Numbered from the stretch's first letter, positions 1,156 to 64,000 are shown. The stretch is 64,000 bases of DNA from Bacteroides uniformis (GCA_963641445.1 CAVIBR010000001.1:244920-308919), one strand, 5' to 3'. Notes: a model not told the origin generated them from the letters alone. Program-made: numbers and translations.

Positions 1156-1202
1156 ATGTCAATTCACGCACGAATTATGTCAATTCACGCACAATTTGTG
1201 CC
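1156..1202 (+). promoter_or_regulatory. Candidate operator: 16-bp direct repeat x2 (ATGTCAATTCACGCAC) with internal inverted repeats, upstream of sugar-transporter/GH3 operon
   Basis: Exact 16-bp repeat at 1156-1171 and 1177-1192 (21-bp periodicity); GAATT-n5-AATTC and GTGAA-n8-TTCAC inverted arms; followed by near-palindrome GCACAATTTGTGC. Confidence 0.45.
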
Positions 1203-1283
1203 ATTTTTCGGTGTTGGCGTGTTTTTGTTTTGCAAAACGTTTATCATATATGTAAAGGCTTACATTATATTAAGGAGCATTTT

Positions 1284-3281: not shown

Positions 3282-3297
3282 TTCTAGGAGAAACGAA

Positions 3298-6783: not shown

Positions 6784-6804
6784 TTAAAGAAAGGAAACAC
6801 AATT

Positions 6805-7158
6805 ATGAAAAAAGCTTCAAAAGTAATGTACATCATTGCCTTAGTCCTCACCATCATTGGTCTTGTTGCTGCCGTTATTATGGACATCTCTGGCATTCTT
6901 GCCATGACTGGCCAAACAAGTGGCCAAGCACCTGACGCTGGAATGACTTGGGCACAAGCCGGAGCGACAACTCTTGGATTCGGTATCTATTTAACAATCG
7001 TTTGCATCGTTTCAATTATCTTCCTTGTTTGGGCAAAGAAATCCGTTGGAAAAGGCAATACCCTTCCACATATACTTGCCATTGTCATTGGCGTTATTGG
7101 TGGAGACATATTTCTTATCCTTGGCGGTATTTTCGGAATTCTCGCCATTAAGCAATAA
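6805..7158 (+). CDS. Small membrane protein (3 TM), hypothetical
   Basis: 117 aa, hydrophobic helices, RBS AAAGGAAAC upstream. Confidence 0.5.
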   Translation: MKKASKVMYIIALVLTIIGLVAAVIMDISGILAMTGQTSGQAPDAGMTWAQAGATTLGFGIYLTIVCIVSIIFLVWAKKSVGKGNTLPHILAIVIGVIGGDIFLILGGIFGILAIKQ

Positions 7159-14715: not shown

Positions 14716-14866
14716 AAACAATAAAGAAAAAATTTAATGCAATATATTAGAATTTATATTGCATTTTTTGTTTTTACTTTGCGAAACCTTTCATATCGGT
14801 ATCATTTTTTTGAAATAGTCGTTAATTAATGTAAAAATGTTAGCGGTTTCATTTAAGGAGGATTAT

Positions 14867-31272: not shown

Positions 31273-31286
31273 TGAAAGGAAAAAAT

Positions 31287-35904: not shown

Positions 35905-36675
35905 ATGAAAAAGAAGACTAAGTTATTGGCTTTGATGCCGCTATTATTTTGCTTATCAAGTTGTGATAAACAGCTTGGCGCAAAGGAAGCCGTTAAATTT
36001 GTTGATGCTATAGGAGAAGAGCTCTGCAAAGATGAGTCTTTCTCTCCGACCGTTGGAACAGTTCATTCACATAAAACAAGGTTGGAAGATGGCTTAACAA
36101 CCACAACGGAAACTGAAGTACGATTCAACGCTGAAGAAGGCTCTAGATATTTTTACGAGAAGAGCGTTGTTACTAGTCAATCTCAATCTGAGAGCGAATT
36201 CTATTTATATGAGAAAGACGATAAATATTATAGAGTCGATTTAGATGGCGAAGAAAAAAGTTCTAAAGAATACACAACCGAAAAAGAATTTGCAAAAGAT
36301 TTCAATAGCGCATTGAGATCTAACGAATTAAATTCTGAAGCGATTAATTATAAAGCTAGATGGTATCTTTTTTACATATCATATTGCTTTGATAACAAAG
36401 ATAAAGAGGAAAAACTATCCTTAAAACTTGACCAAAAACTTGTTAAATTTAACGATTATTCATTTAAATTTGATCAAACAACTACTTATTACGACTCTAA
36501 TTCAGAAGAAAAAAATAGAGCAGAATTTCATGTTGAATTTAAGGATAAATTTCCCATAACTTTAAATACTGTTTCTCCAATGACGGATACTGATGGCAAA
36601 ATGATAACGCTATCTGAAGACGCTACTTATGCTTGGGGTAAGACCACGTATTTATATCCGACAATTACCATATGA
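35905..36675 (+). CDS. Lipoprotein, divergent member 3 of paralog family
   Basis: Lipobox CLSS|C; conserved VRFNAEEGSRYFY and C-terminal YAWGKTTYLYP. Confidence 0.55.
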   Translation: MKKKTKLLALMPLLFCLSSCDKQLGAKEAVKFVDAIGEELCKDESFSPTVGTVHSHKTRLEDGLTTTTETEVRFNAEEGSRYFYEKSVVTSQSQSESEFYLYEKDDKYYRVDLDGEEKSSKEYTTEKEFAKDFNSALRSNELNSEAINYKARWYLFYISYCFDNKDKEEKLSLKLDQKLVKFNDYSFKFDQTTTYYDSNSEEKNRAEFHVEFKDKFPITLNTVSPMTDTDGKMITLSEDATYAWGKTTYLYPTITI

Positions 36676-36706
36676 GGAGAAACATCATTATCGAAAGGGG
36701 ATAACT

Positions 36707-38065
36707 ATGAAAGAAACTATAAAATTTATTCTTAAAGGACTTAGTAAAAACGTTTTCTCATTGATACTTTCAGCAATTCTTTTAACTGCATCAACCTTTT
36801 CAATCAGTTCATCCTTTGTGTTAAAAGAATACAACCTAACAGAATTTGTCTTAAGAAACAGAACAGTTGGAGATGAATATGCTTATTTGCGATTTAATAT
36901 GCACAAAGAGGATGGCGAGTACAAACAACGTCAATTTGATGATGAATCGCTCGAAAAAATAAGGGAATATACTTCAGGCAGTGCCGTTGAATGTTACGAC
37001 TTTTCTTATCAGAAACCAATAAATTTAACGCCTGCAAGAGGAAAGGGGTATAAAGATATTAATAATTTCCTTTATAAGCACAATTGCGTAATGAAACTTG
37101 ATCAAGATACAGGTGAAGAAAAAGCACAAATCCATAGATGTGAAAGATTATCTAGCCAAACTCCATGCAGATTGCCAAACAAAAGTGACGAAATAGCTAT
37201 AAACGCTTTATCTGCTTATACAATGCTTGCCTATGGCATTGTTACTGAACTCCTTCCGGATTCTGAATTACCGGCAGTAGTTTACAAGCCAAAGAGCCTT
37301 GATGAATTAATAGGCTTCAAACTATATAACGGATTAACAATAACTGGAATCTATTCTTCCAATGATGGGTATTCTGAACTTTTTGAACCATATCTTCTTT
37401 CTGGGTTAGATGAAAAAGAAGATTACATAACAAAATACTATTTGTATGGAGGCTTTTCTTCAGCTGGTGCCGCATATGTAAGCAAAGAATTCATAGAAGA
37501 AAAAGGTCTAACGACTCCGAAGTTTGTTTTTGCTAAATTAAGTGGTAATTATCGTTCAGATTTAAATTTTGTTAAATCTTTTAATGAAGAAAATGGCTCT
37601 TTTCTCTTTCCTCTCAACAAATATACCGGCTACGCTAGTTATTTTGATACCGTACCTATCTATTATGATTGCTACCCGGTAACTACAGATCAGTTTTGGA
37701 GAAACTACTGGTATTGCACTATCGCGCCTATAGTACTTAGTTTTGCATTTGCTTTGTTCCATTTCTTCAGAATTTTCAAGAAAGTAGATGAAGAAAAAGT
37801 TATTGTTGAAATAGATGTAAAAAAACGTTGTTTGAATGCAATTTCCCAAATGCTTGTTCCGACTTTGCTTTCGTGGGCGTTTGCATTGATTGCAATACAA
37901 ATCATTTTGACCGTGTTTAATGCCCATTTTGGAGTAGCAATGTTTATCATAACTCCAGGCATTGCATTTGCTGCTTTAGCTGTTTCCTTCATTGAATGTG
38001 GAATAACAATGCTTTGCGGGCTTGGCATTTCTAAGATCCCTTTCAAAAAGAAGAAAGAGTCCTAA
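36707..38065 (+). CDS. FtsX-like/MacB-type permease-fold membrane protein (N-terminal TM, large extracytoplasmic domain, 3 C-terminal TMs), orphan
   Basis: Start ATG 36707 (RBS AAAGGGG); topology 1 TM + ~300 aa ECD + 3 TM at C-terminus characteristic of FtsX-like ABC permeases; no cognate ATPase nearby. Confidence 0.45.
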   Translation: MKETIKFILKGLSKNVFSLILSAILLTASTFSISSSFVLKEYNLTEFVLRNRTVGDEYAYLRFNMHKEDGEYKQRQFDDESLEKIREYTSGSAVECYDFSYQKPINLTPARGKGYKDINNFLYKHNCVMKLDQDTGEEKAQIHRCERLSSQTPCRLPNKSDEIAINALSAYTMLAYGIVTELLPDSELPAVVYKPKSLDELIGFKLYNGLTITGIYSSNDGYSELFEPYLLSGLDEKEDYITKYYLYGGFSSAGAAYVSKEFIEEKGLTTPKFVFAKLSGNYRSDLNFVKSFNEENGSFLFPLNKYTGYASYFDTVPIYYDCYPVTTDQFWRNYWYCTIAPIVLSFAFALFHFFRIFKKVDEEKVIVEIDVKKRCLNAISQMLVPTLLSWAFALIAIQIILTVFNAHFGVAMFIITPGIAFAALAVSFIECGITMLCGLGISKIPFKKKKES

Positions 38066-51177: not shown

Positions 51178-52419
51178 TTAGAATTCGCTATTTAAGAGGG
51201 TGATACCATCAATGGTGATATCAAAATATGGAGCGGAACGCTTAGAACTTTCAGCAAAGAAAGTGATTCCGTCTTTAGTTTCAATAGCTTCTGTATCGCC
51301 AGTATAGGCTGCATCAGTATCAACATCTGCAAGATAAGAAGTAATATGACCCTCTCCATCAACTTTCATTGCTGATGTGATGTTCTTTCCAGAGACAGTG
51401 AAAGTAGAAGTATCGAATACTTTGAGGGTGCCGTTTCTAAGTTTGCCTGCAACTTCGTTAACTTTATCTTCTGTTCCGGCGACTGTTGCAACTTTACCAA
51501 ATTCGCTTAAAGCAACCGAACCATTGCTTAAAGTTGAACCTAAATCGCCAGTGTAATCAGTTTCGATTGATTCACCTTTTTTGAGTTGTTGGAAACAATA
51601 TTTGAAATATGGCTCCCAATCGATTTTTGAAGAAACTAAATACGTATTTGGGCATTTAGATTCTGTTGAGCCGTTATAGGAAACGTTAGGAACGTTCTTG
51701 CTTTCGCAAATAGTTGGAGCTCCCCATGAGTCAGCGTGTTGGGAGATAAGTGAGCAACCACCGGAGATCAATTTTTCTGCGGCTGTTTTTTCGGCTGTTT
51801 CATCATACCAAGATCCAGTGAATTGAACATCCATCGTAACGTCAGAAACAATTGATTTAACGCCAAGATAGAAAGAAGTATAGCCAGAGATAACTTCGGC
51901 ATATGTATAAGCACCGACATAGCCAATCTTCTTAGATGTGCTAGCATCTTTTGAAATCATATCTTGGAGTTTTAAACCTGCTGCAACACCGGCAAGATAT
52001 CTTCCTTCATAGATTGAAGCAAAAGCATTATGGAAATTAGAAACGTTTGCGGTATGCGCTTTGGTTCCGGAAGCGTGAGCGAATTGAACATTAGGTTCTT
52101 CTTTGGCTGCTTTGATGAGGTAATCTTCATGTCCGAACGAGTCAGCAAAGACGAATTTGCATCCAGATTCAACTAAATCGATGGATTTTTCGTAGGCATC
52201 ATTGGATTCTTTGACACTTGTTACGATTACTGGAGTGACGTTTTCTGCTTCAGAAGCTGCTTTGAAAGCGTCGATGAAGTTCTTGTCATAAGTAGAGCTT
52301 TCATCATGTAAAGCAATAAGGCCGACTTTGATTGTGTCGTCTTTCTTTGTTTCGCCGCAACTAGCTAAAGCGGTAATGGTGAGGATTGATAAGGCTGCTA
52401 ATTTAATACACTTTTTCAT
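51178..52419 (-). CDS. BMP-family (Med/TmpC/PnrA-like) nucleoside-binding lipoprotein, substrate-binding component
   Basis: Lipobox ALAS|C; BMP fold motifs (IKVGLIALHDESSTYDK...DAF); ~60 aa longer than typical at C-terminus. Confidence 0.8.
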   Translation of the reverse strand: MKKCIKLAALSILTITALASCGETKKDDTIKVGLIALHDESSTYDKNFIDAFKAASEAENVTPVIVTSVKESNDAYEKSIDLVESGCKFVFADSFGHEDYLIKAAKEEPNVQFAHASGTKAHTANVSNFHNAFASIYEGRYLAGVAAGLKLQDMISKDASTSKKIGYVGAYTYAEVISGYTSFYLGVKSIVSDVTMDVQFTGSWYDETAEKTAAEKLISGGCSLISQHADSWGAPTICESKNVPNVSYNGSTESKCPNTYLVSSKIDWEPYFKYCFQQLKKGESIETDYTGDLGSTLSNGSVALSEFGKVATVAGTEDKVNEVAGKLRNGTLKVFDTSTFTVSGKNITSAMKVDGEGHITSYLADVDTDAAYTGDTEAIETKDGITFFAESSKRSAPYFDITIDGITLLNSEF

Positions 52420-52511
52420 GTGTTCTCCTATTCTTGTCCGTAACCCTTGTTTGAGAATTGGAAAGAAAGCAAGTCTAACAAATGAAAAAGCTAGATACTG
52501 TTAAGATTTTG

Positions 52512-52580
52512 CTTGTTCATAGTGTTGGATTAAGGTCCAACGTAGAAACTTTCCGCCAATCCGGCAATTATACGAACAAT
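52512..52580 (-). ncRNA. Purine riboswitch, guanine class (C74), leader of nucleoside ABC transporter operon
   Basis: Minus-strand RNA GUUCGUAUAAUUGCCGGAUUGGCGGAAAGUUUCUACGUUGGACCUUAAUCCAACACUAUGAAC: P1 GUUCGUA/UAUGAAC, conserved UAUAAU, J2/3 AAGUUUCUAC (exact), P3 GUUGGA/UCCAAC, then A-C-UAUG with C at specificity position. Confidence 0.8.
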
Positions 52581-52746
52581 GTCTTTCGACAACATATTTT
52601 GAAACATATTCAGTCAATATAAAAGAGGAAATTACTCTGAAAACGGTTTCAAAAAAAATTTACAATCTTTTTCTAGCCAAATTGTAAAGACGGGTATAAC
52701 CTTAAAAAATAGAGCGATGTTTCTATAAATCCATAGGAGAACATTA

Positions 52747-53319
52747 ATGCGTAAAATAATCATGAACCAAGCTCAAATTGAAGCTTGTTACAAAAAAGTC
52801 GGTGAAGAAATTTCTTCTTCTCTTAGAAATGAAGAAAAAAGACCTATCTTACTTTGTGTCATGAAAGGAGCGATGACCTTCCTTATTGGTATGATGAAAT
52901 ATATCGATATTCCTGTGATCGTTGATTATATCCATATCTCTTCATATGACGGAACATCATCAACTGGAAAAGTAAACCTTCTTAAAGATATGACCTTCAA
53001 TCCAGAAGGGAGAACGATTGTCATTGTTGAAGATGTTGTTGATACTGGCATTGCAATTAATTACCTTCAAGAATATTTAAAGACAAAGAACCCAAAAGAT
53101 ATCAAAGTCGCGACATTCTTCAACAAAACAGCAAGACGTGAAGTAGAGGTTAAACTCGATTATGTTGGAGAAACATTCACCGAGAATCTCTTCTTATTGG
53201 GTAATGGATTTGACTATAACGAAATTGGAAGAAATATTCCTTATGTCTTTATCCCTGATGAAGAAGATTTCAAGAATTGGGATGAAATTTGTGAGAAAGA
53301 CCCAATACAAAAGTTATAA
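52747..53319 (+). CDS. hpt: Hypoxanthine(-guanine) phosphoribosyltransferase
   Basis: PRPP-binding motif VIVEDVVDTGIA, 190 aa; divergent from guanine-riboswitch-controlled transporter. Confidence 0.85.
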   Translation: MRKIIMNQAQIEACYKKVGEEISSSLRNEEKRPILLCVMKGAMTFLIGMMKYIDIPVIVDYIHISSYDGTSSTGKVNLLKDMTFNPEGRTIVIVEDVVDTGIAINYLQEYLKTKNPKDIKVATFFNKTARREVEVKLDYVGETFTENLFLLGNGFDYNEIGRNIPYVFIPDEEDFKNWDEICEKDPIQKL

Positions 53320-53329
53320 ATATTCAAAA

Positions 53330-53362
53330 ATCACCGGTAAAAGTCCGGTGTTTTTTAAAACT
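53330..53362 (+). terminator. Rho-independent terminator after hpt
   Basis: caccgg-taaaagt-ccggtg + T6. Confidence 0.7.
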
Positions 53363-53445
53363 AATGGGTTTGTATGTTTAAATTTCCTTCTTTAAACGTG
53401 TTTTTTCTTAAACGCAAATTAACTTCAATGTCTTTTCAACTCTTA

Positions 53446-53540
53446 AAAAGTTTTTACTGAAAAAGCAGAAAAACTTTCTAAAAATCAAAAGTTTTTACTG
53501 AATCTCCGGAAAAACTATTAAAAATAACAAAGTTTTTTGG
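53446..53540. repeat. ~49-bp imperfect tandem duplication, each unit an imperfect hairpin (AAAAGTTTTTACTG...CAGAAAAACTTT)
   Basis: aaaagtttttactgaaaaagcagaaaaactttctaaaaatc / aaaagtttttactgaatctccggaaaaactattaaaaataac / aaagtttttt. Confidence 0.7.
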
Positions 53541-53574
53541 TAATATTCTAATAAGAAGTAAGAAGGGACATTTT

Positions 53575-54774
53575 ATGATAATAAGACCAAATTATTTAGC
53601 GAAATTAAAACCATTCATTGATGTGAAATTAGTTAAAATCCTTGCTGGAGTCCGAAGAAGTGGGAAATCTACAATATTAGAAATGCTAAAAAATTACTTG
53701 CTTTCTAATGGGGTTGATCAAAAACACATAATAACAAGAAAGTATTCTAATGAAGATTTTGATACATCTTTTGATTCTAAAATGATGTATGAAGATTTAA
53801 AAAAATCAATAGTTGATGATGAAAGATACTATTTATTATTAGATGAGTTGCAGGAAATTAGCGGTTGGGAAAAAGTCATAAACACTTTGTTAGAAGACTA
53901 TAACACCGATATTTACGTAACTGGATCTAATTCTAAGCTTATGAGTTCTGAAATCTCTACCTATTTAACCGGTCGATACATCACTATCCCTGTTTATACG
54001 CTTTCTTTTAGGGAATATTTGGATTTTAAAAATAATCCTTCTAAATCAAACAAGGAACTTTTACAAGATTATATTAGATACGGGGGCTTCCCATTGGTTG
54101 CTAGCGGAAATTTTGATGAAGCATCCGCATATGCTATAGTCGAAGATATTTATAATTCAGTTGTTGTAAAAGACATTGTCAATAGACACTCTATTGCAAA
54201 TATCGATTTATTTAATCGCGTCGTAAGGTTTGTTATCGAAAACGTTGGCAAAACATTTTCTGCGAATTCAATCGTTAAATTCTTTAAAAATGAGCAAAGG
54301 TCAATATCAATTGAAGCAATTTATAATTATTTAGATTGGTTAGAAAAAGCTTTTGTCATATATCGTTGCAAAAGATATGACTTGCAGGGGAGAAACGTTT
54401 TAAAGACGCAAGAAAAATTCTATATAGCAGATCAGTCTATTAAATATTCTTTATATGGATTTAATCCAACTAGTATTGCTGCAATGATGGAGAATATTGT
54501 ATTTTTTGAACTTAAACGTCGTGGATATGATGTTTATATAGGGAAAAACGCTGATAAAGAGATAGATTTCGTCGCAACGCATCGCGATGAAAAACTATAC
54601 ATTCAAGTATGCCGTGAAATGCCGAAAGAATCAGAAAGAGAAATAGCCAATCTTATGGAGATAAATGACAATTATCCAAAAATCGTTGTCACTCTTGATG
54701 ATTATGCAAGCGGCAATATCAATGGAATAAAAATAGTGCATCTTGCAGACTTTTTGCTTAACGAAAACATTTAA
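53575..54774 (+). CDS. AAA family ATPase with C-terminal DUF4143 (AAA_14/DUF4143 'ATP-binding protein')
   Basis: Walker A GVRRSGKST, Walker B YYLLLDELQ; ~400 aa architecture typical of this family. Confidence 0.75.
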   Translation: MIIRPNYLAKLKPFIDVKLVKILAGVRRSGKSTILEMLKNYLLSNGVDQKHIITRKYSNEDFDTSFDSKMMYEDLKKSIVDDERYYLLLDELQEISGWEKVINTLLEDYNTDIYVTGSNSKLMSSEISTYLTGRYITIPVYTLSFREYLDFKNNPSKSNKELLQDYIRYGGFPLVASGNFDEASAYAIVEDIYNSVVVKDIVNRHSIANIDLFNRVVRFVIENVGKTFSANSIVKFFKNEQRSISIEAIYNYLDWLEKAFVIYRCKRYDLQGRNVLKTQEKFYIADQSIKYSLYGFNPTSIAAMMENIVFFELKRRGYDVYIGKNADKEIDFVATHRDEKLYIQVCREMPKESEREIANLMEINDNYPKIVVTLDDYASGNINGIKIVHLADFLLNENI

Positions 54775-54799
54775 TTATTAGAATCTTTTTACAATTTTA

Positions 54800-56236
54800 T
54801 CAATCTAACACGCTGCTAGATTGATTTTCCCTACGTTTAAGAATCTTTGGAAGAAGAATTAGATAAACGACAAGGGAAGTAAATGATGCAACAGTATCCG
54901 CAATAGGCTCTGCATAGAAAACCATAAAGGCATTAGCTGAACATAATGGCAATAATATCGTTAAAGGTAGAAGGAGGACAATCTTTCTAAATAAGGATAG
55001 CCAAATTGAATATTTAGCTTGTCCTAATCCCGTAATTCCATCCACGCATACGTATTGAAAAGATAAAGGAATAATTCCATACATATAGATGGAAATGACC
55101 TTTCCTGCTGTAGTAATAACATTTTCATTTGGGTTAGAAGAAGACAAGGAAATGAATAATCTAGCAAACGGTGATCCAATAAAAAACGAAAGAACAAATG
55201 ATATTGATGTAAATATCAAAGCAAAAACAATGAGTTGTCTCTCTGCTTTCTTAATCAAATCAATATTCTTCGCACCGTAATTGTATGAAAGCAATGGCTG
55301 AGTTCCTGTTGATATTCCAAGTAATGGACCAGTAAATAAAGAGAAGAAGGCCTGAGTTATTGTTGCAATCTCAATATAGAAATCCGCATCCGCTCCGCCA
55401 AAAGATTTGATTGATGTATTCAAAGCAATATAAATAATAGAGTCAGTCGCGAGAATAACAAATGGAGAAAAACCTAATTTGATAATCTTTTTAACAATCT
55501 TCCAATCCAATTTTTGGAAAGATAATTTGATATCCGTGACTCTCAATAGTAGTAGAAGAACAAATAAGAAAGAAACGAACTGCGATATAAGAGTTGCCCA
55601 TGCCGCACCTGCAACACCCATATTGAATACATAGATAAATATTGGATCTAGAATAACATTCAGTATTGCACCAACCAAGGTAACTAACATCCCAAGAAGA
55701 GACTTTCCTTGCGCAATGACGAATTGATTTAATCCTAAAGTCAAAATAGAAAAGAATGTTCCGCCTAGATATATAAGGAAATACTGATAGGCATATGGGA
55801 ATGATGCGTCAGAGGCACCAAATAAATATAAAAGAGGCTTCCCTAATGGATAGAAAATAGCCACAATCAACGCAGATAATCCAAGTAATAAGATGAATGA
55901 ATTGGATAATATCTTTTTAGCATTTCCTTCATTCTTTTCCCCTAACGACATCGAAAAGATAGGTGATCCACCATAGCCAATCCAATAAGCAAAAGAAGAT
56001 ATGAAGGTCGTAATAGGTGCCACAACACCAACTCCAATCAAAGCGATCTCTCCAACAGAAGGCATATTCCCAATGAATATACGATCAACAATGCTATATA
56101 GAACTGAAACTAGCTGAGCTAACATACTAGGCAAGGCTAGCTGCATGATGCTTTTAAGGGTATTTTTGTTTCCTAAATCCAATTTGCGCACGAGTAGGAT
56201 TTTAATCCTAAAAGAAAAGGAATTCATCAAAAACAC
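54800..56236 (-). CDS. MATE family efflux transporter
   Basis: 12 TM; N-terminal region ...LKSIMQLALPSMLAQLVSVLYSIVDRIFIG typical of MATE; annotated ORF begins with GTG, true start uncertain (ATG at 56227 or 56146 possible). Confidence 0.75.
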   Translation of the reverse strand: MFLMNSFSFRIKILLVRKLDLGNKNTLKSIMQLALPSMLAQLVSVLYSIVDRIFIGNMPSVGEIALIGVGVVAPITTFISSFAYWIGYGGSPIFSMSLGEKNEGNAKKILSNSFILLLGLSALIVAIFYPLGKPLLYLFGASDASFPYAYQYFLIYLGGTFFSILTLGLNQFVIAQGKSLLGMLVTLVGAILNVILDPIFIYVFNMGVAGAAWATLISQFVSFLFVLLLLLRVTDIKLSFQKLDWKIVKKIIKLGFSPFVILATDSIIYIALNTSIKSFGGADADFYIEIATITQAFFSLFTGPLLGISTGTQPLLSYNYGAKNIDLIKKAERQLIVFALIFTSISFVLSFFIGSPFARLFISLSSSNPNENVITTAGKVISIYMYGIIPLSFQYVCVDGITGLGQAKYSIWLSLFRKIVLLLPLTILLPLCSANAFMVFYAEPIADTVASFTSLVVYLILLPKILKRRENQSSSVLD

Positions 56237-56329
56237 ATCTATAATATAGGTATAGAGAATCTCTAAGTCGTATTTCTTGCGCCGATATTTCTCTATTTCT
56301 ATAATGTTGCAGTTCGAAAGGAAACCCTT

Positions 56330-57253
56330 ATGCCAATAAAAGATTATTCAATGCTAGATTTAATCGGAAATACTCCACTCATCCGTCTAAGAAAGATCGA
56401 AGAGAAATATTCTTCGTCTTCCCCAATATATGCCAAAGTTGAAAGATGCAATCCAACCGGATCTATCAAAGATAGAGCAGCAAAAGAAATGATTCTTGCC
56501 GCTTTAAAAGAAGGAAAAATCAATAAAGATACAACGATTATCGAACCAACTAGCGGAAATACTGGCATAGCCTTAGCAGCAATAGGCGCAACACTTGGAA
56601 TGAAAGTTGTTTTCTTCATGCCTGCTAATTGTTCAATCGAAAGAGTGAAAATGATGAAAGCATTTGGCGCAGAATGTCGTCTAGTTAAAGAAGGTGGCAT
56701 GGCTCAATGCATCAAAGAAGCAGAAACCCTTCACCAAGAAATAAAGAACTCTTTCATTCCTCTTCAATTTGATAATATAAACAATTCCTTAGCCCACTAT
56801 AAAACCACTGGACCAGAAATATATGTCCAAACTGCTGGGGAAATTGCGATTTTTGTTGCTGCTTTTGGAACAGGAGGAACGCTTTCTGGCACGACTAAAT
56901 ACCTTAAAGAAAAGAAACCTTCCTTAATATCTGTTGGAGTGGAACCTGCTGGCTCACCATTTGTTTCAACAGGTAATAAAGGCCCTCATAAGATTCAAGG
57001 CATTGGCGCAGGATTCAAACCTGAAATCCTTGATCTTAACTTAGTTGATAAAATCTTAACCATCACCGATGAAAAAGCATACGAACTAACAAGAGCCATC
57101 GCTAAAGAAGAAGGGCTCTTTGTTGGAATCTCTTCTGGCGCTAATGTTGCAGCATCTTTAGAAATGGCAAAAGAATACCCAGGAAAGATAATTGTAACCG
57201 TTCTTCCAGATAACGGAGAAAGATACCTTTCAGTCCCTGAATTATTTGAATAA
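56330..57253 (+). CDS. cysK: Cysteine synthase A (O-acetylserine sulfhydrylase)
   Basis: LIGNTPLIRL, PLP-lysine motif SIKDRAA, GTGGT loop; 307 aa. Confidence 0.85.
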   Translation: MPIKDYSMLDLIGNTPLIRLRKIEEKYSSSSPIYAKVERCNPTGSIKDRAAKEMILAALKEGKINKDTTIIEPTSGNTGIALAAIGATLGMKVVFFMPANCSIERVKMMKAFGAECRLVKEGGMAQCIKEAETLHQEIKNSFIPLQFDNINNSLAHYKTTGPEIYVQTAGEIAIFVAAFGTGGTLSGTTKYLKEKKPSLISVGVEPAGSPFVSTGNKGPHKIQGIGAGFKPEILDLNLVDKILTITDEKAYELTRAIAKEEGLFVGISSGANVAASLEMAKEYPGKIIVTVLPDNGERYLSVPELFE

Positions 57254-57254
57254 T

Positions 57255-58049
57255 ATGAACTTAATAGATTTAGAAAAGCAATTCGAAAAAAATCCTTCTA
57301 TTGAACCATTCAATAAAGAAGAAATTGATTCATTTTTAATACACGCATCCGCTCTTTTGATGTTTGAATACCAAGAAAAGCCATATTCAAAAGAGAAATT
57401 AGAAAGCCTCTACAACATCGTTTCAGATGAATTAGACATCCTCCTAAAGAATGAAGAAAAACATTTCTCATTCAAAGAAAAGTTTCTTTCCTCATTGCCT
57501 GATATAAGAAGAAGTCTTAACACATCCCTTGAAGCAATAATCGAAGGAGACCCTGCAAGCACATCTAAACAAGAAATCGTTTTAATGTATCCAGGATTTG
57601 AAGCAATCCTTAATTACCGCATTGCACATGAATTCTATCTAGAAGGCCTTTCCTTAATTGCTAGATATATCTCCGAGAAAGCGCATAAAGACACCGGAAT
57701 AGATATTAATCCTGGCGCTACAATAGGTGATTATTTCTTCATTGATCATGGAACAGGTATTGTTATTGGTGAAACTGCTATATTAGGAAATAATGTAAAA
57801 CTCTATCAAGGAGTAACTCTTGGTGCTTTATCTCTTTCAAAAGGAAGAGGACTAATCGGCAAGAAAAGGCATCCAACAGTTGAAGATAACGTTACCATCT
57901 ATTCCAATGCGGCAATCTTTGGCGGAGATACGATAATTGGTGAAGGATCAGTAATAGGAGGAGACGTATATCTCACTCACTCAGTAGATCCGAATAGCCT
58001 CGTCCTTCAAACTGATAAAAATTTAACAATCATTCATAAGGAAAAATAA
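57255..58049 (+). CDS. cysE: Serine O-acetyltransferase
   Basis: Left-handed beta-helix hexapeptide repeats GIDINPGATIGDYFFIDHGTGIVIGETAILGNNVKLYQGVTLG; ATG 57255 two nt after cysK stop (ORF track start is TTG 57246). Confidence 0.8.
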   Translation: MNLIDLEKQFEKNPSIEPFNKEEIDSFLIHASALLMFEYQEKPYSKEKLESLYNIVSDELDILLKNEEKHFSFKEKFLSSLPDIRRSLNTSLEAIIEGDPASTSKQEIVLMYPGFEAILNYRIAHEFYLEGLSLIARYISEKAHKDTGIDINPGATIGDYFFIDHGTGIVIGETAILGNNVKLYQGVTLGALSLSKGRGLIGKKRHPTVEDNVTIYSNAAIFGGDTIIGEGSVIGGDVYLTHSVDPNSLVLQTDKNLTIIHKEK

Positions 58050-58056
58050 GCAATAA

Positions 58057-58088
58057 GACCTGAATATCAAATGAGTTCAGGTTTTTTC
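58057..58088 (+). terminator. Rho-independent terminator after cysE
   Basis: acctgaa-tatcaaatgag-ttcaggt + T6. Confidence 0.7.
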
Positions 58089-58175
58089 TTCCGAAGAAAT
58101 TGCCATTAAAAACGCTTGGTTTTAGTCAGAAATGATTGTTTGAAAATAACAATATTTTTCCTAATCTTCTTTTTT

Positions 58176-58250
58176 ATAGAATTCTATATTTTTTGCTATT
58201 TGATTAATCAAATAGAGGCACCAATTTTCGACAATTTTATAGAATTCTAT
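58176..58250. promoter_or_regulatory. Twin 12-bp perfect palindromes ATAGAATTCTAT (58176-58187 and 58239-58250) within 31-bp direct repeats; candidate operator pair
   Basis: ttttatagaattctatatttttgctatttg and ttttatagaattctatatttttgtcgatttg; centre-to-centre 63 bp (6 helical turns). Confidence 0.5.
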
Positions 58251-58404
58251 ATTTTTGTCGATTTGTTAAAGAAAAATATCAATTATTATTGAAGAAGATC
58301 TAAATGCGTTGTTACAACTATGTCTTTTTTATAATGAAATTAGTCAATTCACCATATGAATGTTTCTAATTAATTAACTTGCTTAAAATTTTTACAAATA
58401 AATG

Positions 58405-58435
58405 TTGCAAATTAGAAGGGGGGGGTCTCTATAAT
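58405..58435 (+). promoter_or_regulatory. Candidate sigma-A promoter TTGCAA-19 nt-TATAAT with a G8 homopolymer inside the spacer (potential slipped-strand phase-variation switch)
   Basis: ttgcaa attagaa gggggggg tctc tataat; G-run 58418-58425; 60 nt upstream of ATG 58494; poly-G is compositionally anomalous in this AT-rich genome. Confidence 0.5.
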
Positions 58436-58493
58436 TTTGACATTGAAAGCGCTTACTTGCGCGAAATAAAAAATAAAAGGAAAGGTTATTTCT

Positions 58494-59075
58494 ATGAAAA
58501 AACATCAAAAGGTGTTATTAGGATTGATGGTCCTAGGCCTTGCTGGCGGTGTCGGCACGGCTGTAGCGTTGACCCGTAACGCGGCAACGGATTCAACCGG
58601 CGGTGGCTTAGATCAAGCTATCTATCTAAATTGGGGTAATGAGGTCCAAAATTCCGAAGCACAAGCAACAGTCGAAAACTTAGTTGCAAAAGCTCCTCAG
58701 TATCGTTATCTTGTTGTAACAACAAAGGCAACGAATTTATTAAAAGGAAATGTCACATTAACATTTACTGCGGCAACTGAAGAAGATACCGTCATGACTG
58801 GCTTAACGATTGACGTATATTCCGTTACAACTGAAAAAACTTCGACCTTCGTTACTTCAACTGAAGAAGGTATTGCACCAGACAAACTTGAAGGAACGAT
58901 TTCCGAAACGAACAAAACCGTAACATCAAAATTCGCTGTTGATGGAACAGCAGCAACGAGCTTAACTCATTACTACACGTTGGTCTTCACATGGGATGGC
59001 ACATCGCCTGAAGATGCAAACAAATCAATTGGCGCGAATCTAACAGTTTCACAGGATTTCGCTATTGCAGAATAA
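58494..59075 (+). CDS. Secreted protein with SipW-cognate-like signal peptide (TasA/TapA-like small subunit candidate)
   Basis: MKKHQKVLLGLMVLGLAGGVGTAVALT resembles TasA/camelysin signal (…GGGTWAAFND); mature part beta-rich T/V-rich ~160 aa; first gene of cluster with sipW. Confidence 0.45.
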   Translation: MKKHQKVLLGLMVLGLAGGVGTAVALTRNAATDSTGGGLDQAIYLNWGNEVQNSEAQATVENLVAKAPQYRYLVVTTKATNLLKGNVTLTFTAATEEDTVMTGLTIDVYSVTTEKTSTFVTSTEEGIAPDKLEGTISETNKTVTSKFAVDGTAATSLTHYYTLVFTWDGTSPEDANKSIGANLTVSQDFAIAE

Positions 59076-59089
59076 AGGAGCTATAGATT

Positions 59090-60187
59090 ATGAAAAAGAT
59101 GAATAAATTTATTGTCGCAGCTTCTTTAACTGCTGGTGTTGTTGGCTGCTTTGGAGCAGCGTTTGCTCTCTACAAAAAGGCCGAAAATCCATTAAATATT
59201 GGTATTGGCAAAGTCACCACCCACGGTGACTCGACTGCCGTAATCAATTACTCATTTGGCGATGGCGTTACTGCGTACAAAGATGAAGCTTTGGAAAATA
59301 CAATTAGTTTAAAAGATAACGTTATTTCACCTGAAATTAATAAAGTTTATCTTAAAGTTCCTCTTCAATTCAAATATACAACCGAAGATGCAAGCTTCAC
59401 TAGCCAAGGAACAACCGTTGGCCGTTTCTCAGTAACTGTTGATATTAATGAAAAAGTCAGAACTGCAGGCAACGTAGTAGTTGGAGCTAAACTTTGCGGG
59501 TATGAAAAAGTTACCATAACAGGCGACGACCAGCAGAACTACGATGTAGATACATATTTTACAGCCGAAAAAACAAAGAATTTCTTCGATACTACATTTA
59601 ATAATGAAACTACAACTAAAGTAACGAAGTATATAGATACAGCAGTTGATAAAACCAGCATTTATTGTGTTATCTCAATTGATATGAGTGCCGCTATGAC
59701 TGATGATAATTATAAATATTATGACTTAGTCAACGAACTTAAAGACGGAAATGCTTTCGATGTTTCTCTTAATTGGGAAGGCTATAAGAGCACTCTTGCG
59801 AACTTTGATACTAAACTTGTACCTAATGCATATGTCCGTGGCGACTATAGCGACTGGGGAATACGCGAAGGATATCAAATGGTTCCAAATATCAAAGGAC
59901 GTGTAAATATCGGTTCCGATGATAGCCATTGGGAATGGGGCGTTGAATGGACCTATAAGATCTTAAAGAACTTCAGTGTTATTAAGGTATACGACGAAAG
60001 TGATACTTTAGTTAATGACAGCGGCTGGGTTTATTGCAGAGGTGTAGCAGCAGGCTCTGGAGCTACTAAAGAAGACAATGGTAATGCCAAGCTTGATAGC
60101 GAAAAGACTTATGACATCTATTACAAGCGTAATTGCAAAACTGAAGCTGGCTTCTGGGTCGACCCTGGTTCTGAAAGCGTAGACTAG
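59090..60187 (+). CDS. Secreted TasA/camelysin-like protein candidate with C-terminal Trp-rich beta domain
   Basis: Signal ...GVVGCFGAAFALYKKAENPLNIGIGK (AAFA-Y motif as in SipW substrates; shares A-x-A-x-Y-(x4)-N-x-NIGI with 60903 gene); RBS AAGGAG. Confidence 0.45.
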   Translation: MKKMNKFIVAASLTAGVVGCFGAAFALYKKAENPLNIGIGKVTTHGDSTAVINYSFGDGVTAYKDEALENTISLKDNVISPEINKVYLKVPLQFKYTTEDASFTSQGTTVGRFSVTVDINEKVRTAGNVVVGAKLCGYEKVTITGDDQQNYDVDTYFTAEKTKNFFDTTFNNETTTKVTKYIDTAVDKTSIYCVISIDMSAAMTDDNYKYYDLVNELKDGNAFDVSLNWEGYKSTLANFDTKLVPNAYVRGDYSDWGIREGYQMVPNIKGRVNIGSDDSHWEWGVEWTYKILKNFSVIKVYDESDTLVNDSGWVYCRGVAAGSGATKEDNGNAKLDSEKTYDIYYKRNCKTEAGFWVDPGSESVD

Positions 60188-60208
60188 TTTCTTATTTTCC
60201 GCATCTTT

Positions 60209-60874
60209 ATGAAAAAGAAGCAAAAGAGAAAAAATAAAGTTATTTCGATAATTGGCGAGGTGCTCTTATGGGCTCTCGCTCTCTTTTGTGTTTCCGTTTC
60301 ACTTGTAAGCACGATTGACACACATACAAACTATTCGTGTTCTTACTTTGGATTAAGAACATCGGTCATTGTTTCTAATTCAATGGCTAATGCCAATCCA
60401 GAGAACACTTATTTAGATTCTTCGATGACTCGGATAAACAAATATGATGTTATAACCGCTAAAGAGGTCTCATATGATGATATATCTCTTTATGACGTCG
60501 TCCTTCATGTTGAGGGAAACAATCTTATTTGTCACCGAGTCATCGATAAGTATCAAGACAATGGAACATCGTATTTAGTCACCCGTGGTGATTCAAATAA
60601 CGTTAATGACGCTCCATTTGCTTACTCATCGTGTAGAGGCAAAGTCATCAATGTTATTCCAAATATAGGAGAAATGGTTCTCTTCCTTCAAAGTGGTTAT
60701 TTCTTCCTAGCCTTATTCTTCTCGATATTCCTTGTCGCTGGAACTCTCTTTACGATCTCTTTTGTTTCTGAAAAGAAAAAAGCTAAGGCAATAAGCCAAT
60801 CTAATACCAATGCTGATATAATTGACGTTGAGATAAATAAAGAAGATCCTTCAAAAGAAAACAAAGAAGAATAA
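60209..60874 (+). CDS. sipW: SipW-type (archaeal/ER-type) signal peptidase I, S26 family
   Basis: N-terminal TM, catalytic Ser box VSNSMAN (SxSMxP-like), conserved HRV...TRGDSNNVNDA (GDNN-x-D box), and a C-terminal TM as in B. subtilis SipW. Confidence 0.7.
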   Translation: MKKKQKRKNKVISIIGEVLLWALALFCVSVSLVSTIDTHTNYSCSYFGLRTSVIVSNSMANANPENTYLDSSMTRINKYDVITAKEVSYDDISLYDVVLHVEGNNLICHRVIDKYQDNGTSYLVTRGDSNNVNDAPFAYSSCRGKVINVIPNIGEMVLFLQSGYFFLALFFSIFLVAGTLFTISFVSEKKKAKAISQSNTNADIIDVEINKEDPSKENKEE

Positions 60875-60902
60875 CTCTCATTTTATTACAGAGGAAAACG
60901 TT

Positions 60903-62246
60903 ATGAAAAAATGCAATAGAATCATATTGCCGATTTCTGTCATATCTTTTTCCTTTGCCTTAATTTCTCTTAACCATGCTCTTGCAACATATATGAATAC
61001 TGCAAGTAACATCAATATAGGCATATCAGGAGTTACTCCAAGTTATTATCTTGAGTGGAATAGTGGCGAAAAAGAAACGTTAGCTAGTGATGGTTCAACC
61101 ACTCAATATAGCAAAACGGTTAATATATCTGAAACAGGCAGCTATTCATATAAAATAGTCGATATTAACAATAATGAAATATTCTCTCAATCATCGTTTG
61201 ACGTGGGTTTGACCGGGGATTTTTCAATTTCTTTTGATTCTGAAACAAAGAAATCATCCATAACTTATTCATTCTCAGTCCTAGATCATGGAAAAGTATT
61301 TGGCGAAGGGATGTATTGCTATGCAAGTGAAAACGATCCAACCGCAGTCGGGCATAAGATAATTGGAAGTTTCTGCAACTGGTCGTTAGGATCTTCTAGT
61401 GCTGTTCAAATGTCAAATAATCCTAATAATTCTGATGATAAAGGGATGGCGAGACATGTCTATCTTGCAAACGGAAACACATTTAAGCTCGTTGATTCAA
61501 ATGGAACTTATTATGGCTATTCGAAGTTAAAATCAGCAAATGATTTTGATGACTTTGGAAATTGCTTTAGCGAAGACACAAATTCAGATTCTAATATAAC
61601 TGTAACTAAATCCGGATATTATGATTTTTGCTATGCTTCAGATGGAAATTTATATGTTTCTAAGAGCGATGAAGCGGAATACATTCAAGGAACCACCGAT
61701 GGGATAATTACAACATTCACGCTAGATGCAACCAAATACGCTTCATCCAATACATATTTGTCTTTTTATGGAAACGAAACAGCTAAACATAGTGGAACAG
61801 CGGATATAGCATATTTATTCTCTTCAGAAACTAATGCTACATGTCTAATGACAAAGGATATCTATTTGAACCCTGGAAAATGGAATACCGCTAGTGCTTG
61901 GTTTATGGCTGGAGTTGGTTCAACAAACTCTTCAAAGACAAATTACGTTAAAATGGTACAAAACGGAGACACTTATTATTCTATGAGTTTGCTAACTTCG
62001 GATGCGTATGCTGATTTCTATCGCATGAATAGTGAGTATGATAAATCCGATCCAAAGTATAATGATCCATCTTATAAATGGAATATGGTTAGCTCATTAT
62101 CCGATGGAAAAGATATTGATGTTGCAAATTATTCCTGCTTCTCAATAATTGAAAATTCAGGTGGATCATGGACTGAAAATGATTGCTCAATAACATCCAT
62201 TCCAACAGGACTCCCTCAATATAGTCCTATTCCATATATTAACTAA
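60903..62246 (+). CDS. Secreted protein with SipW-cognate-like signal and two putative CBM25/26-like starch-binding modules
   Basis: Signal ...LNHALATYMNTASNINIGISG; motifs IGSFCNWS...YLANGNTFKLVDSNGTYYG and YLSFYGNE...AYLFS...LMTKD...GKWNTASAW...VQNGDTYYS resemble CBM25/26 (VYF..W..Y.YFW...MTKD..GW...NNG...YY). Confidence 0.45.
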   Translation: MKKCNRIILPISVISFSFALISLNHALATYMNTASNINIGISGVTPSYYLEWNSGEKETLASDGSTTQYSKTVNISETGSYSYKIVDINNNEIFSQSSFDVGLTGDFSISFDSETKKSSITYSFSVLDHGKVFGEGMYCYASENDPTAVGHKIIGSFCNWSLGSSSAVQMSNNPNNSDDKGMARHVYLANGNTFKLVDSNGTYYGYSKLKSANDFDDFGNCFSEDTNSDSNITVTKSGYYDFCYASDGNLYVSKSDEAEYIQGTTDGIITTFTLDATKYASSNTYLSFYGNETAKHSGTADIAYLFSSETNATCLMTKDIYLNPGKWNTASAWFMAGVGSTNSSKTNYVKMVQNGDTYYSMSLLTSDAYADFYRMNSEYDKSDPKYNDPSYKWNMVSSLSDGKDIDVANYSCFSIIENSGGSWTENDCSITSIPTGLPQYSPIPYIN

Positions 62247-62261
62247 AGGAGATAAACAAAT

Positions 62262-64000
62262 ATGAAGAAAAAGAATCTAAATATCTTATTATTCACAGGA
62301 TTATTGCTAAGCATTTTTTCCTGTTCTCCTTCGAATGATACTAGTAGCAATACTACCGACGAAACTATCTCCTCAAAAGAAGAAGGAACAAGTGAAAGCC
62401 CATTATCTTCATCAACTTCATCTAGTACAAGTTCTTCATTATCAAAGAAAGATGACGATCCAGATATTTCTGAAAAATTCACCGGAATAGTAAGAATTTA
62501 TTTCCATGATGATGGAGGAACAGAAAAAAACAAAGCAATCTATTGCTGGATTTCAGGCGTAGACGGAACAGAATATGCCTGGGATGGAGAAGAAGATGGT
62601 TATGGCACATACAAAGATATCGACCTTTCTGATCCTAAATTCATCGATAAAGTAACAGATGATTTCTATTTCATCATCAAATATCCCGCAACATGGGATG
62701 GGCAAAGCGATGATATCAAAATCGTTCTTTCTGATTATCTAAAGAATGGTGAAGTAGATACCCTAGAAAATGGTAAAAAAAGAATAAATGTTTTCGCTTG
62801 CGATGAAGGAGGAGGAAACTACGTTACCTATTACCATAAAGCAGACGCACTTGGTTTCCGTTTTGGCACAGCAACCATAGAAAAAGACTGGAAAACATTA
62901 AAGGTAACTTGCACTGGCAAATGTGTTTCCTATTCACTATATGCACTTGATGGAGCCTTTGCTGCTAAAAAGATAGCAGTAACCGATCCAGAAGCCAATC
63001 TAAGTTCATACCTCATAAAAGAAGACAAACCTAACGTTGATTCTTTTGAACTTGATCTGACTTCCTTAAGCTATCCAACAGGTAGAGCAGTAACAGTAAG
63101 ACCAAACCTTACTTTCATGCTTATTGGTCATTTTGAAGACGCTCCAGAGAAAACAAAAACCAAAGCAGTTTCTTTCGATAAGCTTTTTGATACCGATAAA
63201 TTCATCTCTGATTACACCTATTCCGGCGATGATTTAGGCGTGACATATAGCAAAGAACGTACCGAATGGAAGCTTTGGAGTCCACTTTCAGTTAAAGCTG
63301 ATTTAGTCCTCTATAGAGACGGAACCCCTAAAGCGCTTGTCACCGATAATTCCGGCGGATGGAATGATTTTGCCTATAAAGTAGAATCAATGAGATATGA
63401 CTCAAACGGAGTATACGTTGCTGCATTAAAAGGGGACTGGTCTGGATATTTCTATCAGTATCGTCTCTATTACAACGGAACGTATGTTGATACACCTGAC
63501 CCATATGCCACCTCGTGTGGGCTTAATGGAGTTCGCTCTGCTGTAACTGATTTCTCCTCCCTCAACCCAACTGGATGGGATGATATTTCCTATACAGCCT
63601 TATCTTCTCCAACGGAATTAACTCCTTATGAAGTTCATATTAGAGATCTGACATCTCACTCAACTTGGATCTCTAGAAAAGGAAATGAAAGAGGAGGATA
63701 TAACGCCTTCCACGAAAAAGGAACGGGGTTTAACGGGGTAAAAACGGGTTTTGACCATATAAAAGAGTTAGGAGTCAATGCAGTTCAACTCTTACCAGTC
63801 TTTGATCAAGATAATGATGAAAGAACATTGACCGATAAGAATGGCGTAGTCCATAAACCTAACTATAACTGGGGATATAATCCAGCTAACTATAACTGTG
63901 TGGAAGGATCCTATTCCTCAAACCCAAGCGATCCAAATGTCCGTGTCAAAGAATTCAAATCTCTAATTAAAGATTATGCTGATGAAGGAATAAGAGTAAT
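62262..64000 (+). CDS. Type I pullulanase (GH13) lipoprotein, 3'-truncated by window end; not present in supplied ORF track
   Basis: ATG 62262 after AAGGAG; signal+lipobox IFSC|S, Ser-rich linker; pullulanase signature YEVHIRDLT (YN/E-x-H-x-RD), GYNAFHEKGTG, NWGYNP; open through 64000. Confidence 0.8.
   Translation, partial: MKKKNLNILLFTGLLLSIFSCSPSNDTSSNTTDETISSKEEGTSESPLSSSTSSSTSSSLSKKDDDPDISEKFTGIVRIYFHDDGGTEKNKAIYCWISGVDGTEYAWDGEEDGYGTYKDIDLSDPKFIDKVTDDFYFIIKYPATWDGQSDDIKIVLSDYLKNGEVDTLENGKKRINVFACDEGGGNYVTYYHKADALGFRFGTATIEKDWKTLKVTCTGKCVSYSLYALDGAFAAKKIAVTDPEANLSSYLIKEDKPNVDSFELDLTSLSYPTGRAVTVRPNLTFMLIGHFEDAPEKTKTKAVSFDKLFDTDKFISDYTYSGDDLGVTYSKERTEWKLWSPLSVKADLVLYRDGTPKALVTDNSGGWNDFAYKVESMRYDSNGVYVAALKGDWSGYFYQYRLYYNGTYVDTPDPYATSCGLNGVRSAVTDFSSLNPTGWDDISYTALSSPTELTPYEVHIRDLTSHSTWISRKGNERGGYNAFHEKGTGFNGVKTGFDHIKELGVNAVQLLPVFDQDNDERTLTDKNGVVHKPNYNWGYNPANYNCVEGSYSSNPSDPNVRVKEFKSLIKDYADEGIRV

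Follow-up and report, generated by a model that had tools for sequence, protein, structure and literature searches.

Within a 64,000-nucleotide stretch of DNA labelled Bacteroides uniformis (GCA_963641445.1, CAVIBR010000001.1:244920-308919; the whole of which is called the window here), positions 58494-62246 hold four open reading frames (ORFs), all on the plus strand and in the order p1-p2-p3-p4, which we read as an export and assembly module set in a starch-utilisation locus: three exported proteins (p1, p2 and p4) that share a leader, a divergent SipW-like signal peptidase (p3) encoded among them that would process that leader, and predicted starch-binding modules on p2 and p4 that may be displayed on a surface polymer built from p1. 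We put this whole account, polymer included, at about even odds (roughly 0.5). Its core, comprising the gene set, the type of peptidase, the leader common to three of the proteins, their folds and starch-binding modules, and the linkage kept from locus to locus, we hold with high confidence; the polymer step, which is argued by analogy with characterised systems, is close to an even bet and if anything slightly below it. The co-directional set of four genes had been picked out in a first-pass annotation, and its coordinates are exactly as claimed there. The genes and the one that follows them are these:

58494..59075, plus strand: p1, a small exported protein of 193 residues, with a leader at 1-25 and a jelly-roll core at about 60-193; candidate major subunit.
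59090..60187, plus strand: p2, an exported protein of 365 residues, with a leader, an N-terminal beta-sandwich at about 40-240 and a C-terminal module of starch-binding type.
60209..60874, plus strand: p3, a SipW-like signal peptidase (endoplasmic reticulum (ER)/archaeal type, S26B) of 221 residues, with N- and C-terminal transmembrane segments.
60903..62246, plus strand: p4, an exported protein of 447 residues, with a leader, NIGISG, YYLEW, a SusE/F-like module and, beyond that, an additional C-terminal part.
62262..64000, plus strand: lipoprotein pullulanase with GH13 and CBM48, running past the end of the window; lipobox LLSIFSC.

The gaps between the genes are short (14 nucleotides between p1 and p2, 21 between p2 and p3, 28 between p3 and p4, and 15 between p4 and the pullulanase gene), and a terminator scan listed no terminator-like site between the operon genes. 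The ORFs are intact under table 11, so the standard genetic code applies. That the next gene encodes a pullulanase had also been claimed, and this is borne out by the lipobox, by a CBM_48 match in the part of the protein that lies in the window, and by the full-length orthologue (1014 residues, with Alpha-amylase and CBM_48) in a metagenome-assembled genome (MAG) of the same species group, locus L001, which served as our comparison partner and is about 97% identical in DNA; because that orthologue has the GH13 catalytic domain, the fifth gene can be called a pullulanase-type enzyme. Lying 15 nucleotides past p4, it probably belongs to the same operon.

The peptidase p3 is a SipW-like enzyme of the ER/archaeal type, and a divergent one. 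It matches TIGR02228 with E 2.9e-11 (43.5 bits) and the SipW model NF046067 with E 8.6e-7 (28.7 bits), and since these matches are significant yet stay below the curated cut-offs of 51.85 and 190, p3 is a relative of SipW rather than an equivalog. The LepB-type model TIGR02227 gave no match at E<=1, so p3 is not assigned to the LepB-type signal peptidase I, and no Pfam family, Peptidase_S24/S26 included, matched it. When the solved structures of the PDB were searched by sequence, the sole relatives were human SEC11C and SEC11A, aligned over ICHRV and TRGDSNNVND. The boxes on which the assignment turns are the following:

60374..60385, plus strand: SNSM box, residues 56-59, with the predicted catalytic Ser58; neither S58 nor M59 varies among 10 orthologues.
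60527..60541, plus strand: ICHRV box, residues 107-111, with His109; LICHR is invariant in the 10 orthologues and the box aligns with IVHRV of SEC11.
60587..60610, plus strand: GDSNNVND box, residues 127-134, with Asp128 and Asp134; TRGD.NN..D is invariant and aligns with TKGDNNxVDD of SEC11.

Histidine, and not lysine, is the general base in ER-type signal peptidases. Two hydrophobic stretches, read from the sequence at residues 11-33 and 163-186, are kept across the 10-orthologue alignment. The SipW type proposed in the first-pass annotation thus stands as far as the boxes, the histidine base and the two hydrophobic segments go, although the curated TIGR02228 cut-off is missed, and the box that had been quoted as GDNN-x-D is present but actually reads GDSNNVND.

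What ties p3 to its neighbours is their leader. In p1, p2 and p4 alike, an MKKxxK start is followed by a glycine-rich hydrophobic core, an A-x-A motif and then L or T, and the -3/-1 rule places the predicted cleavage within AVA|LT in p1, AFA|LY in p2 and ALA|TY in p4. Three segments of this N-terminal region matter for what follows:

58494..58568, plus strand: p1 leader MKKHQKVLLGLMVLGLAGGVGTAVA, predicted by the -3/-1 rule to be cleaved after A-V-A.
58611..58637, plus strand: N-terminal strand of p1, DQAIYLNWG, equivalent to jelly-roll strand B; candidate donor strand, a role we infer.
59195..59209, plus strand: NIGIG segment of p2, with I37, I39 and G40 invariant; it aligns with NIGISG of p4 and is an insertion relative to p1.

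The common leader had been claimed earlier, and the motifs are as quoted (GGVGTAVALT in p1, AAFALYKK...NIGIG in p2 and HALATYMN...NIGISG in p4), with a similarity beyond chance: hhalign returned 92% probability for p4 against p2 (E 5e-7), 83% for p4 against the p1 family (E 8e-6) and 85% for the p1 family against p2 (E 6e-6). This profile similarity is confined to the N-terminal 45-55 residues, which take in the first mature strand (DxAIYLxWG in p1, YYLxW in p4) and, ahead of it but after the cleavage motif, the (N)IGI(G/S) of p2 and p4. Mean pairwise identity in the leader exceeds that of the mature part in all three families (78.6 versus 40.6% in p1, 63.4 versus 47.7% in p2 and 52.4 versus 38.4% in p4). 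Ordinary Sec signals are not conserved this strongly, and a leader more conserved than the protein that it exports argues for specific recognition by a dedicated enzyme; we infer that p3 is the enzyme that cleaves it. The adjacent pullulanase, unlike p1, p2 and p4, has an ordinary lipoprotein signal.

The arrangement is conserved well beyond the window. The order p1-p2-p3(-p4) is kept in nine near loci, all from MAGs, where it is followed by pullulanase, Flg_new-repeat proteins and alpha-amylase, and in one lineage the operon lies directly 3′ of a maltodextrin ABC transporter and a GH13 gene. Across these loci identity is 59-99% for p3, 35-54% for p2, 28-90% for p4 and 37-55% for p1, except for 96% in one locus (L013) that carries the window's own p1 allele. 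Six distant members of the p1 family were then looked up, and all five with enough sequence (5/5) have a p2-like gene and a SipW-like peptidase gene directly after the p1-like gene. Counting near and distant loci with enough sequence, the peptidase lies two genes 3′ of the p1-like gene in 14/14, and the linkage is kept in distant lineages where p1 has diverged to about 20-25% identity. The far stronger conservation of p3 (59-99%) than of its neighbours would suit a housekeeping signal peptidase of a reduced-genome lineage, whose place in the operon had nothing to do with the genes around it. Such an enzyme would hardly be expected to keep its position in 14/14 loci while p1 drifts to a fifth or a quarter identity, nor does it account for p1, p2 and p4 belonging to one conserved leader class when the pullulanase next to them does not, and we consider this explanation improbable. 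One apparent break in the near loci is an artefact: the p4 orthologue appears as two ORFs in L005/L008 (9839-10985) owing to N runs, which give X in the translation; the assembly has a gap there, and no true frameshift is involved.

The majority of the loci adjoin pullulanase, amylase or CBM26 genes, and the distant ones can be set out singly:

L015: adjoins CBM26 proteins.
L017: adjoins pullulanases with PUD and CBM48.
L020: adjoins a CBM48 enzyme and a CBM26/Flg_new protein.
L022, 7001-9403: adjoins GH127 and not starch genes; has no p4.

In L021 and L023 the sequence is too short to judge the starch context. The p2-like protein of L022 retains a GxFNNW...M..N...EW C-terminal module, and because the module persists there, away from starch genes, we regard the triad with its built-in starch-binding module as the conserved unit and the starch locus as its usual home. 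The L022 triad itself may be a retargeted or relocated system.

The starch-binding modules are predicted from sequence and models, and two were found in the operon:

59822..60166, plus strand: C-terminal module of p2, residues 245-359; fold match to the SusE/SusF/X25 and pullulanase starch-binding modules.
61359..61700, plus strand: SusF_SusE-like module of p4, residues 153-266; 31.2 bits with Pfam PF16411, whose cut-off is 27.5.

No Pfam family matched p2, and among seven p4 orthologues PF16411 scores at E<=0.1 in one (1/7). The two modules are linked to each other by a weak co-linear profile match (P 0.0065), and that of p4 has blastp similarity to domains in the downstream Flg_new and amylase proteins. 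It would be through these modules that p2 and p4 bind starch. The first-pass annotation had credited p4 with CBM25/26-like motifs; a match of starch-binding type is indeed there (the 31.2 bits), but the family is SusF_SusE and not CBM25/26, and the starch-binding-type domain at the C terminus of p2 had gone unmentioned. In the distant locus L015 a p1-like domain is fused to CBM26 (42.7 bits). In the literature searched, SipW was not found together with CBM26, pullulanase or an amylosome, and the co-mentions of SipW and starch, among the matches listed, come from unrelated Bacillus work.

Locus L015 (5210-6442 and 8001-9209; 9277-10308) is of some interest in its own right. There the p1-like domain runs straight into starch-binding modules, a bona fide CBM26 included, its leaders, GGAFAAWAVTDN, come much nearer to the GGGTWAAFND of TasA, and its SipW-like peptidase carries an insertion of about 120 residues.

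Given a SipW-like peptidase, the obvious question is whether its substrates are related to TasA, and here the answer from hidden Markov models (HMMs) is negative. As a positive control, Bacillus subtilis TasA scored 513.8 bits with NF046066 and 38 bits with TIGR04088, and was matched by TIGR04090 at E 1.9e-4 and by TIGR04089 at E 5.9e-3. PF12389 had no match at E<=10 in 21 p1 or 15 p2 members, none at E<=0.1 in seven p4 members, and none at E<=1 in the window's own p1, p2 and p4. The models TIGR04088, TIGR04089 and TIGR04090 matched nothing at E<=10, whether searched against full-length p1, p2 and p4, against the isolated leaders or against the leaders of L015. A profile comparison of the p1 family with 33 TasA/CalY sequences did reach 64.5% probability (E 6e-5) over the leader and some 40 mature residues, whereas with both leaders trimmed it fell to 0.7%, within the range of 30 column-shuffled controls, and p2 and p4 against the TasA/CalY profile gave 2% and 0.6%. 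The likeness of p1 to TasA is thus limited to the leader, and the mature proteins cannot be shown to be homologues of TasA. A co-linear resemblance near the C terminus (GGsLkISQSF in p1, GNSIKLQFSF in TasA) was accordingly dropped as statistically unsupported. Membership of p1, p2 and p4 in the TasA family is therefore not supported, and the earlier claim of TasA, camelysin and SipW-cognate-signal affinity fails in every HMM check against a control that behaved as it should. Taken as a whole, the first-pass interpretation is borne out in part.

Nor do other families name these proteins: searches of Pfam, NCBIfam and PHROGs with p1, p2 and p4 gave no informative match save the marginal SusF_SusE in p4. 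Homologues are rare and unnamed (20 for p1 and 14 for p2 in a search of 5.8 billion clusters), and a profile search of 1.84 billion representatives extended the p1 family to 124 clusters, nearly all of 170-200 residues with the common leader and first-strand signature. One further match to the p1 profile, the 1593-residue repeat protein P0087, owed its alignment to nothing more than a low-complexity repeat, GTGAWTF..GTAVITTPTS, and was set aside. PDB sequence searches with p1, p2 and broad p1 profiles returned chance-level matches only (the coat protein of a phage and a de novo beta protein, for example) and no TasA, AbpA or CanA.

The AlphaFold2 model of p1, made from a 21-sequence alignment, has a mean predicted local distance difference test score (pLDDT) of 67 (66-94 in the core blocks) and forms a jelly roll whose core holds seven strands modelled with confidence. 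Its N-terminal strand is the most conserved segment of the mature protein, D40, A42, Y44 and W47 being invariant in the 21 sequences, and residues 40-45 are modelled as a strand at pLDDT <50. In the model of p2, from 15 sequences (pLDDT 83, predicted template-modelling score 0.81), the leader forms a helix, residues of about 40-240 a beta-sandwich, and the C-terminal part a beta domain of its own; at residues 41-60 the N-terminal strands are confidently packed in the monomer (pLDDT 84-87). Past the leader and first strand, hhalign found no similarity between the p1 core and the p2 N-domain, so that a common origin of the two beta domains rests on fold only. Foldseek returned nothing significant for p1; AbpA, with a best query TM-score of 0.36, and CanX were among the fold matches, of which the best were viral capsid proteins and SID1 ectodomains. 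The modelled fold of p1 is accordingly compatible with subunits of the TasA class but does not identify that class.

Capsid proteins among the best matches raise the thought that p1 and its neighbours are capsid-like jelly rolls left by a phage or mobile element and have no part in starch use. This is essentially refuted already: there is no PHROG match, synteny with cysK, cysE and the pullulanase gene is kept across species, the G+C content of the operon equals that of its surroundings, and leaders and starch-binding modules are present.

A much stronger competitor, and the main rival, keeps the same gene set and processing and drops the polymer. According to it, p1, p2 and p4 would be individual starch-binding accessory proteins, secreted or at the surface, and functional analogues of SusE/SusF or of the Sas proteins of Ruminococcus bromii; the SipW-type peptidase would be needed solely for their atypical leader, and retention would come from binding to the lipoprotein pullulanase or from delayed leader cleavage. 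The well-supported starch-binding modules and starch locus context fit it, as do the absence of a sequence or specific fold link between the mature proteins and TasA and the confident packing of the p2 N-terminal strands in the monomer model. It gives p1 no role, however, although p1 is encoded first, is present in every locus and has no binding module, and it leaves unexplained why the N-terminal strand should be the most conserved segment of mature p1 and yet be so poorly satisfied in the monomer model. Moreover, the SipW substrates characterised to date all polymerise (PMC9674648, PMC11580942). We give it a substantial minority chance.

In the account that we favour, p1, p2 and p4 would be exported by Sec by means of their shared conserved leader, and p3, from the same operon, would cut that leader after A-x-A. 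At the cell surface, p2 and p4 would hold starch together with the membrane-tethered lipoprotein pullulanase. The polymer step adds that p1 would be the major subunit of a surface polymer of the TasA/AbpA/BsaA type, its DQAIYLNW strand supplying the missing eighth strand of a neighbour's jelly roll, and that p2 and p4, by way of their extra NIGIG strand, may nucleate this polymer or become part of it, much like TapA with TasA (PMC10151520), so that their starch-binding modules would be displayed. A subunit with its leader still uncleaved may retain the whole in the membrane, as has been proposed for BsaA, for which a membrane-anchored donor-strand polymer has been put forward (PMC11580942). 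The analogy draws on the fact that the SipW operons characterised so far encode donor-strand polymers, namely of TasA (PMC9674648, PMC10151520) and BsaA (PMC11580942); in TasA filaments the donor strand is inserted into the next subunit, and in AbpA the donor strand is the first (B) strand of the jelly roll (PMC9245690).

Variation between strains offers a separate view of p1 and p2. Aligned with L001, the window falls into blocks:

52326-58090: 97.6% DNA identity.
58159-58636, through p1 codon 47 (leader and first strand): 91.6%.
58637..60184, plus strand: hypervariable cassette, which takes in the mature part of p1 and the whole of p2; blastn finds no similarity to L001 7547-9127.
60185-64000: 95.4%.

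The breakpoint thus lies just past the conserved first strand of p1, and at the protein level identity to L001 is 48% for p1 and 41% for p2, against 99% for p3 and 90% for p4. The window's allele recurs in the MAG fragment L013, and a further allele of p2 (P0002), 89% identical, departs from it in a single internal block, a pattern suggestive of mosaic recombination. Judged from these alignments, the change in p1 and p2 between strains is an allelic cassette replacement. Surface structures that are abundant and exposed (pilins, flagellins and S-layers, for example) typically show replacement of this kind, and we suppose that p1 and p2 are among them. At 5762-7069 (minus strand), L001 carries an AAA_14/DUF4143 ATPase gene, which separates the operon from the serine acetyltransferase gene and which the window does not have at the corresponding place (about 58090-58159); a paralogous AAA_14/DUF4143 gene is found in the window at 53575-54774.

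Since S-layer proteins typically vary from strain to strain in this way, and the best fold matches of p1 are to viral capsid proteins and SID1 ectodomains, one might picture p1 as a two-dimensional, S-layer-like coat to which p2 and p4 are attached as lattice-bound starch binders. There is, however, no SLH, CWB2 or other anchoring domain to be found, a single domain of 167 residues is small for an S-layer protein, and the SipW setting speaks for donor-strand polymers of linear form (PMC9674648); we would allow this only a small chance.

Among known systems the closest in plan is tapA-sipW-tasA of B. subtilis, where, as in the operon described here, a peptidase of ER type with two transmembrane segments is encoded among its own exported substrates and a small beta-sandwich or jelly-roll major protein is paired with a larger accessory protein that has a distinctive N terminus. 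Even the leaders resemble each other in having a motif of small residues beside a glycine-rich stretch (GGVGTAVA|L in p1, GGGTWA|AF in TasA). The differences are that the mature proteins have no sequence relation to TasA or TapA that could be detected, that the present operon has three substrates, two of them with predicted starch-binding modules, that it lies within a catabolic starch locus rather than a biofilm regulon, and that its peptidase gene follows p1 and p2 and precedes p4. The sipW-bsaA-bsaB-bsaC operon of Clostridium perfringens is likewise a SipW system outside Bacillus with several substrates and no LPXTG motif (PMC11580942), but the proteins described here have no match to TIGR04090 and no VWA protein among them, and BsaA is a biofilm matrix protein without the carbohydrate-binding cargo of p2 and p4.

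The archaeal TasA-like fibres, namely the bundling pili of AbpA/AbpB (7UEG) and the cannulae of CanA/CanX (9H8B), are represented among the fold matches of p1, though p1 scores no better against them than against many unrelated jelly rolls, and, unlike the operon in the window, they come without a dedicated peptidase gene and without starch-binding modules. Starch-binding proteins of other gut bacteria differ too: SusE and SusF of Bacteroides are outer-membrane lipoproteins of a diderm, whereas p2 and p4 have no lipobox, and in R. bromii, with its Sas/Sca X25 proteins, the amylosome is put together through cohesin and dockerin, neither of which occurs here. In p1-p4 we found no LP.TG motif, no lipobox and no Pfam match to cohesin, dockerin or Gram_pos_anchor, and the exported proteins here combine a SipW-type leader with a jelly-roll or beta-sandwich N-domain. 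Chaperone-usher pili (FimA/FimH) are an analogy only, in that, as proposed here, a polymer of small donor-strand subunits carries a two-domain subunit of lectin type; the fold family is another, there is no chaperone or usher, and the present host is a monoderm.

SipW-dependent systems are known outside Bacillus, as the bsa operon and the TIGR04088-04090 families attest, and the principle is therefore not new. What is new, as read from the sequences, is a set of substrate families without annotation or detectable sequence relation to TasA, the presence of SusE/X25/CBM26-type modules within substrates of an operon embedded in starch-utilisation loci, and the variation of p1 and p2 from strain to strain as an allelic cassette.

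Attachment to starch decides which gut bacteria use resistant starch. To our knowledge, few architectures for it have been described (Sus, amylosomes and sortase-anchored enzymes). A dedicated peptidase system of SipW type, until now tied to biofilm matrix fibres, is here joined to predicted starch-binding modules, and the combination is fixed in starch-utilisation loci over a set of uncultured gut Bacilli. We tentatively suggest, at rather less than even odds, a fourth architecture for starch capture, namely a chaperone-free donor-strand fibre of the TasA/AbpA class, made of a jelly-roll protein family without annotation, that is processed by a SipW-type enzyme and decorated or capped by subunits with SusE/X25/CBM26-type starch-binding modules, its p1/p2 cassettes being swapped under phage or immune pressure. 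For three families that are unannotated in Pfam, NCBIfam and PHROGs, the operon is a first lead to function, and it supplies a candidate for a small chaperone-free scaffold on which carbohydrate-binding modules could be displayed. From their replacement between strains, p1 and p2 are probably dominant surface antigens or receptors for phages.

As for the host, the best description is a Bacillota of Bacilli type from the gut, not yet cultured. Orthologous loci L006-L014, at 67-98% DNA identity, come from MAGs labelled Lachnospiraceae, Hallerella (Fibrobacterota), Sodaliphilus (Bacteroidota), Roseburia hominis, Wujia chipingensis and Staphylococcaceae, and taxonomy from MAG labels was rejected because near-identical loci are labelled as three phyla. 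Weak hints come from the 90% clusters of RpoC and MetK at two distant loci, which include 'Erysipelotrichaceae bacterium', 'Bacilli bacterium' and Candidatus Alectryobacillus merdavium (Bacilli incertae sedis).

Upstream of p1, an intergenic region of 440 bp contains possible control elements:

58057..58088, plus strand: hairpin and T-run 3′ of a serine acetyltransferase-like gene, read from the sequence (GACCTGAA...TTCAGGTTTTTT).
58175..58188, no strand assigned: first copy of the palindrome TATAGAATTCTATA, perfect over 14 bp; candidate operator.
58238..58251, no strand assigned: second copy of TATAGAATTCTATA, overlapping a promoter-like site at 58228-58255.

With the hairpin, which the terminator scan did not list, we take the transcription unit to be bounded on its upstream side. 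The two copies of the palindrome, 63 bp apart, are both kept in L001, and no other copy occurs in the 64 kb (0.03 expected), so that it is probably an operator for some regulator.

The rest of the window is saccharolytic chromosome of 36% G+C, encoding GH2, GH3 and GH5 enzymes and sugar transporters, and its composition does not shift at the operon. A purine riboswitch (52.8 bits; 52500-52595, minus strand) lies 5′ of an operon for a Bmp/PnrA-type binding protein and an ABC transporter (51178-52419 onward), which is an ordinary arrangement for nucleoside uptake. Two adjacent large ORFs (28771-31272, 833 residues, and 31272-33722, 816 residues) and a further one at 36629-38065 have no Pfam match at E<=1e-5. 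The GH3 protein at 14837-17950 has permuted domains, with GH3_C and an Fn3-like domain ahead of the GH3 N-terminal domain. Finally, the ORFs listed for MFS_2 (1137-3281) and another GH3 protein (3040-5745) overlap by about 240 nucleotides, and the true start of the latter is therefore probably later.

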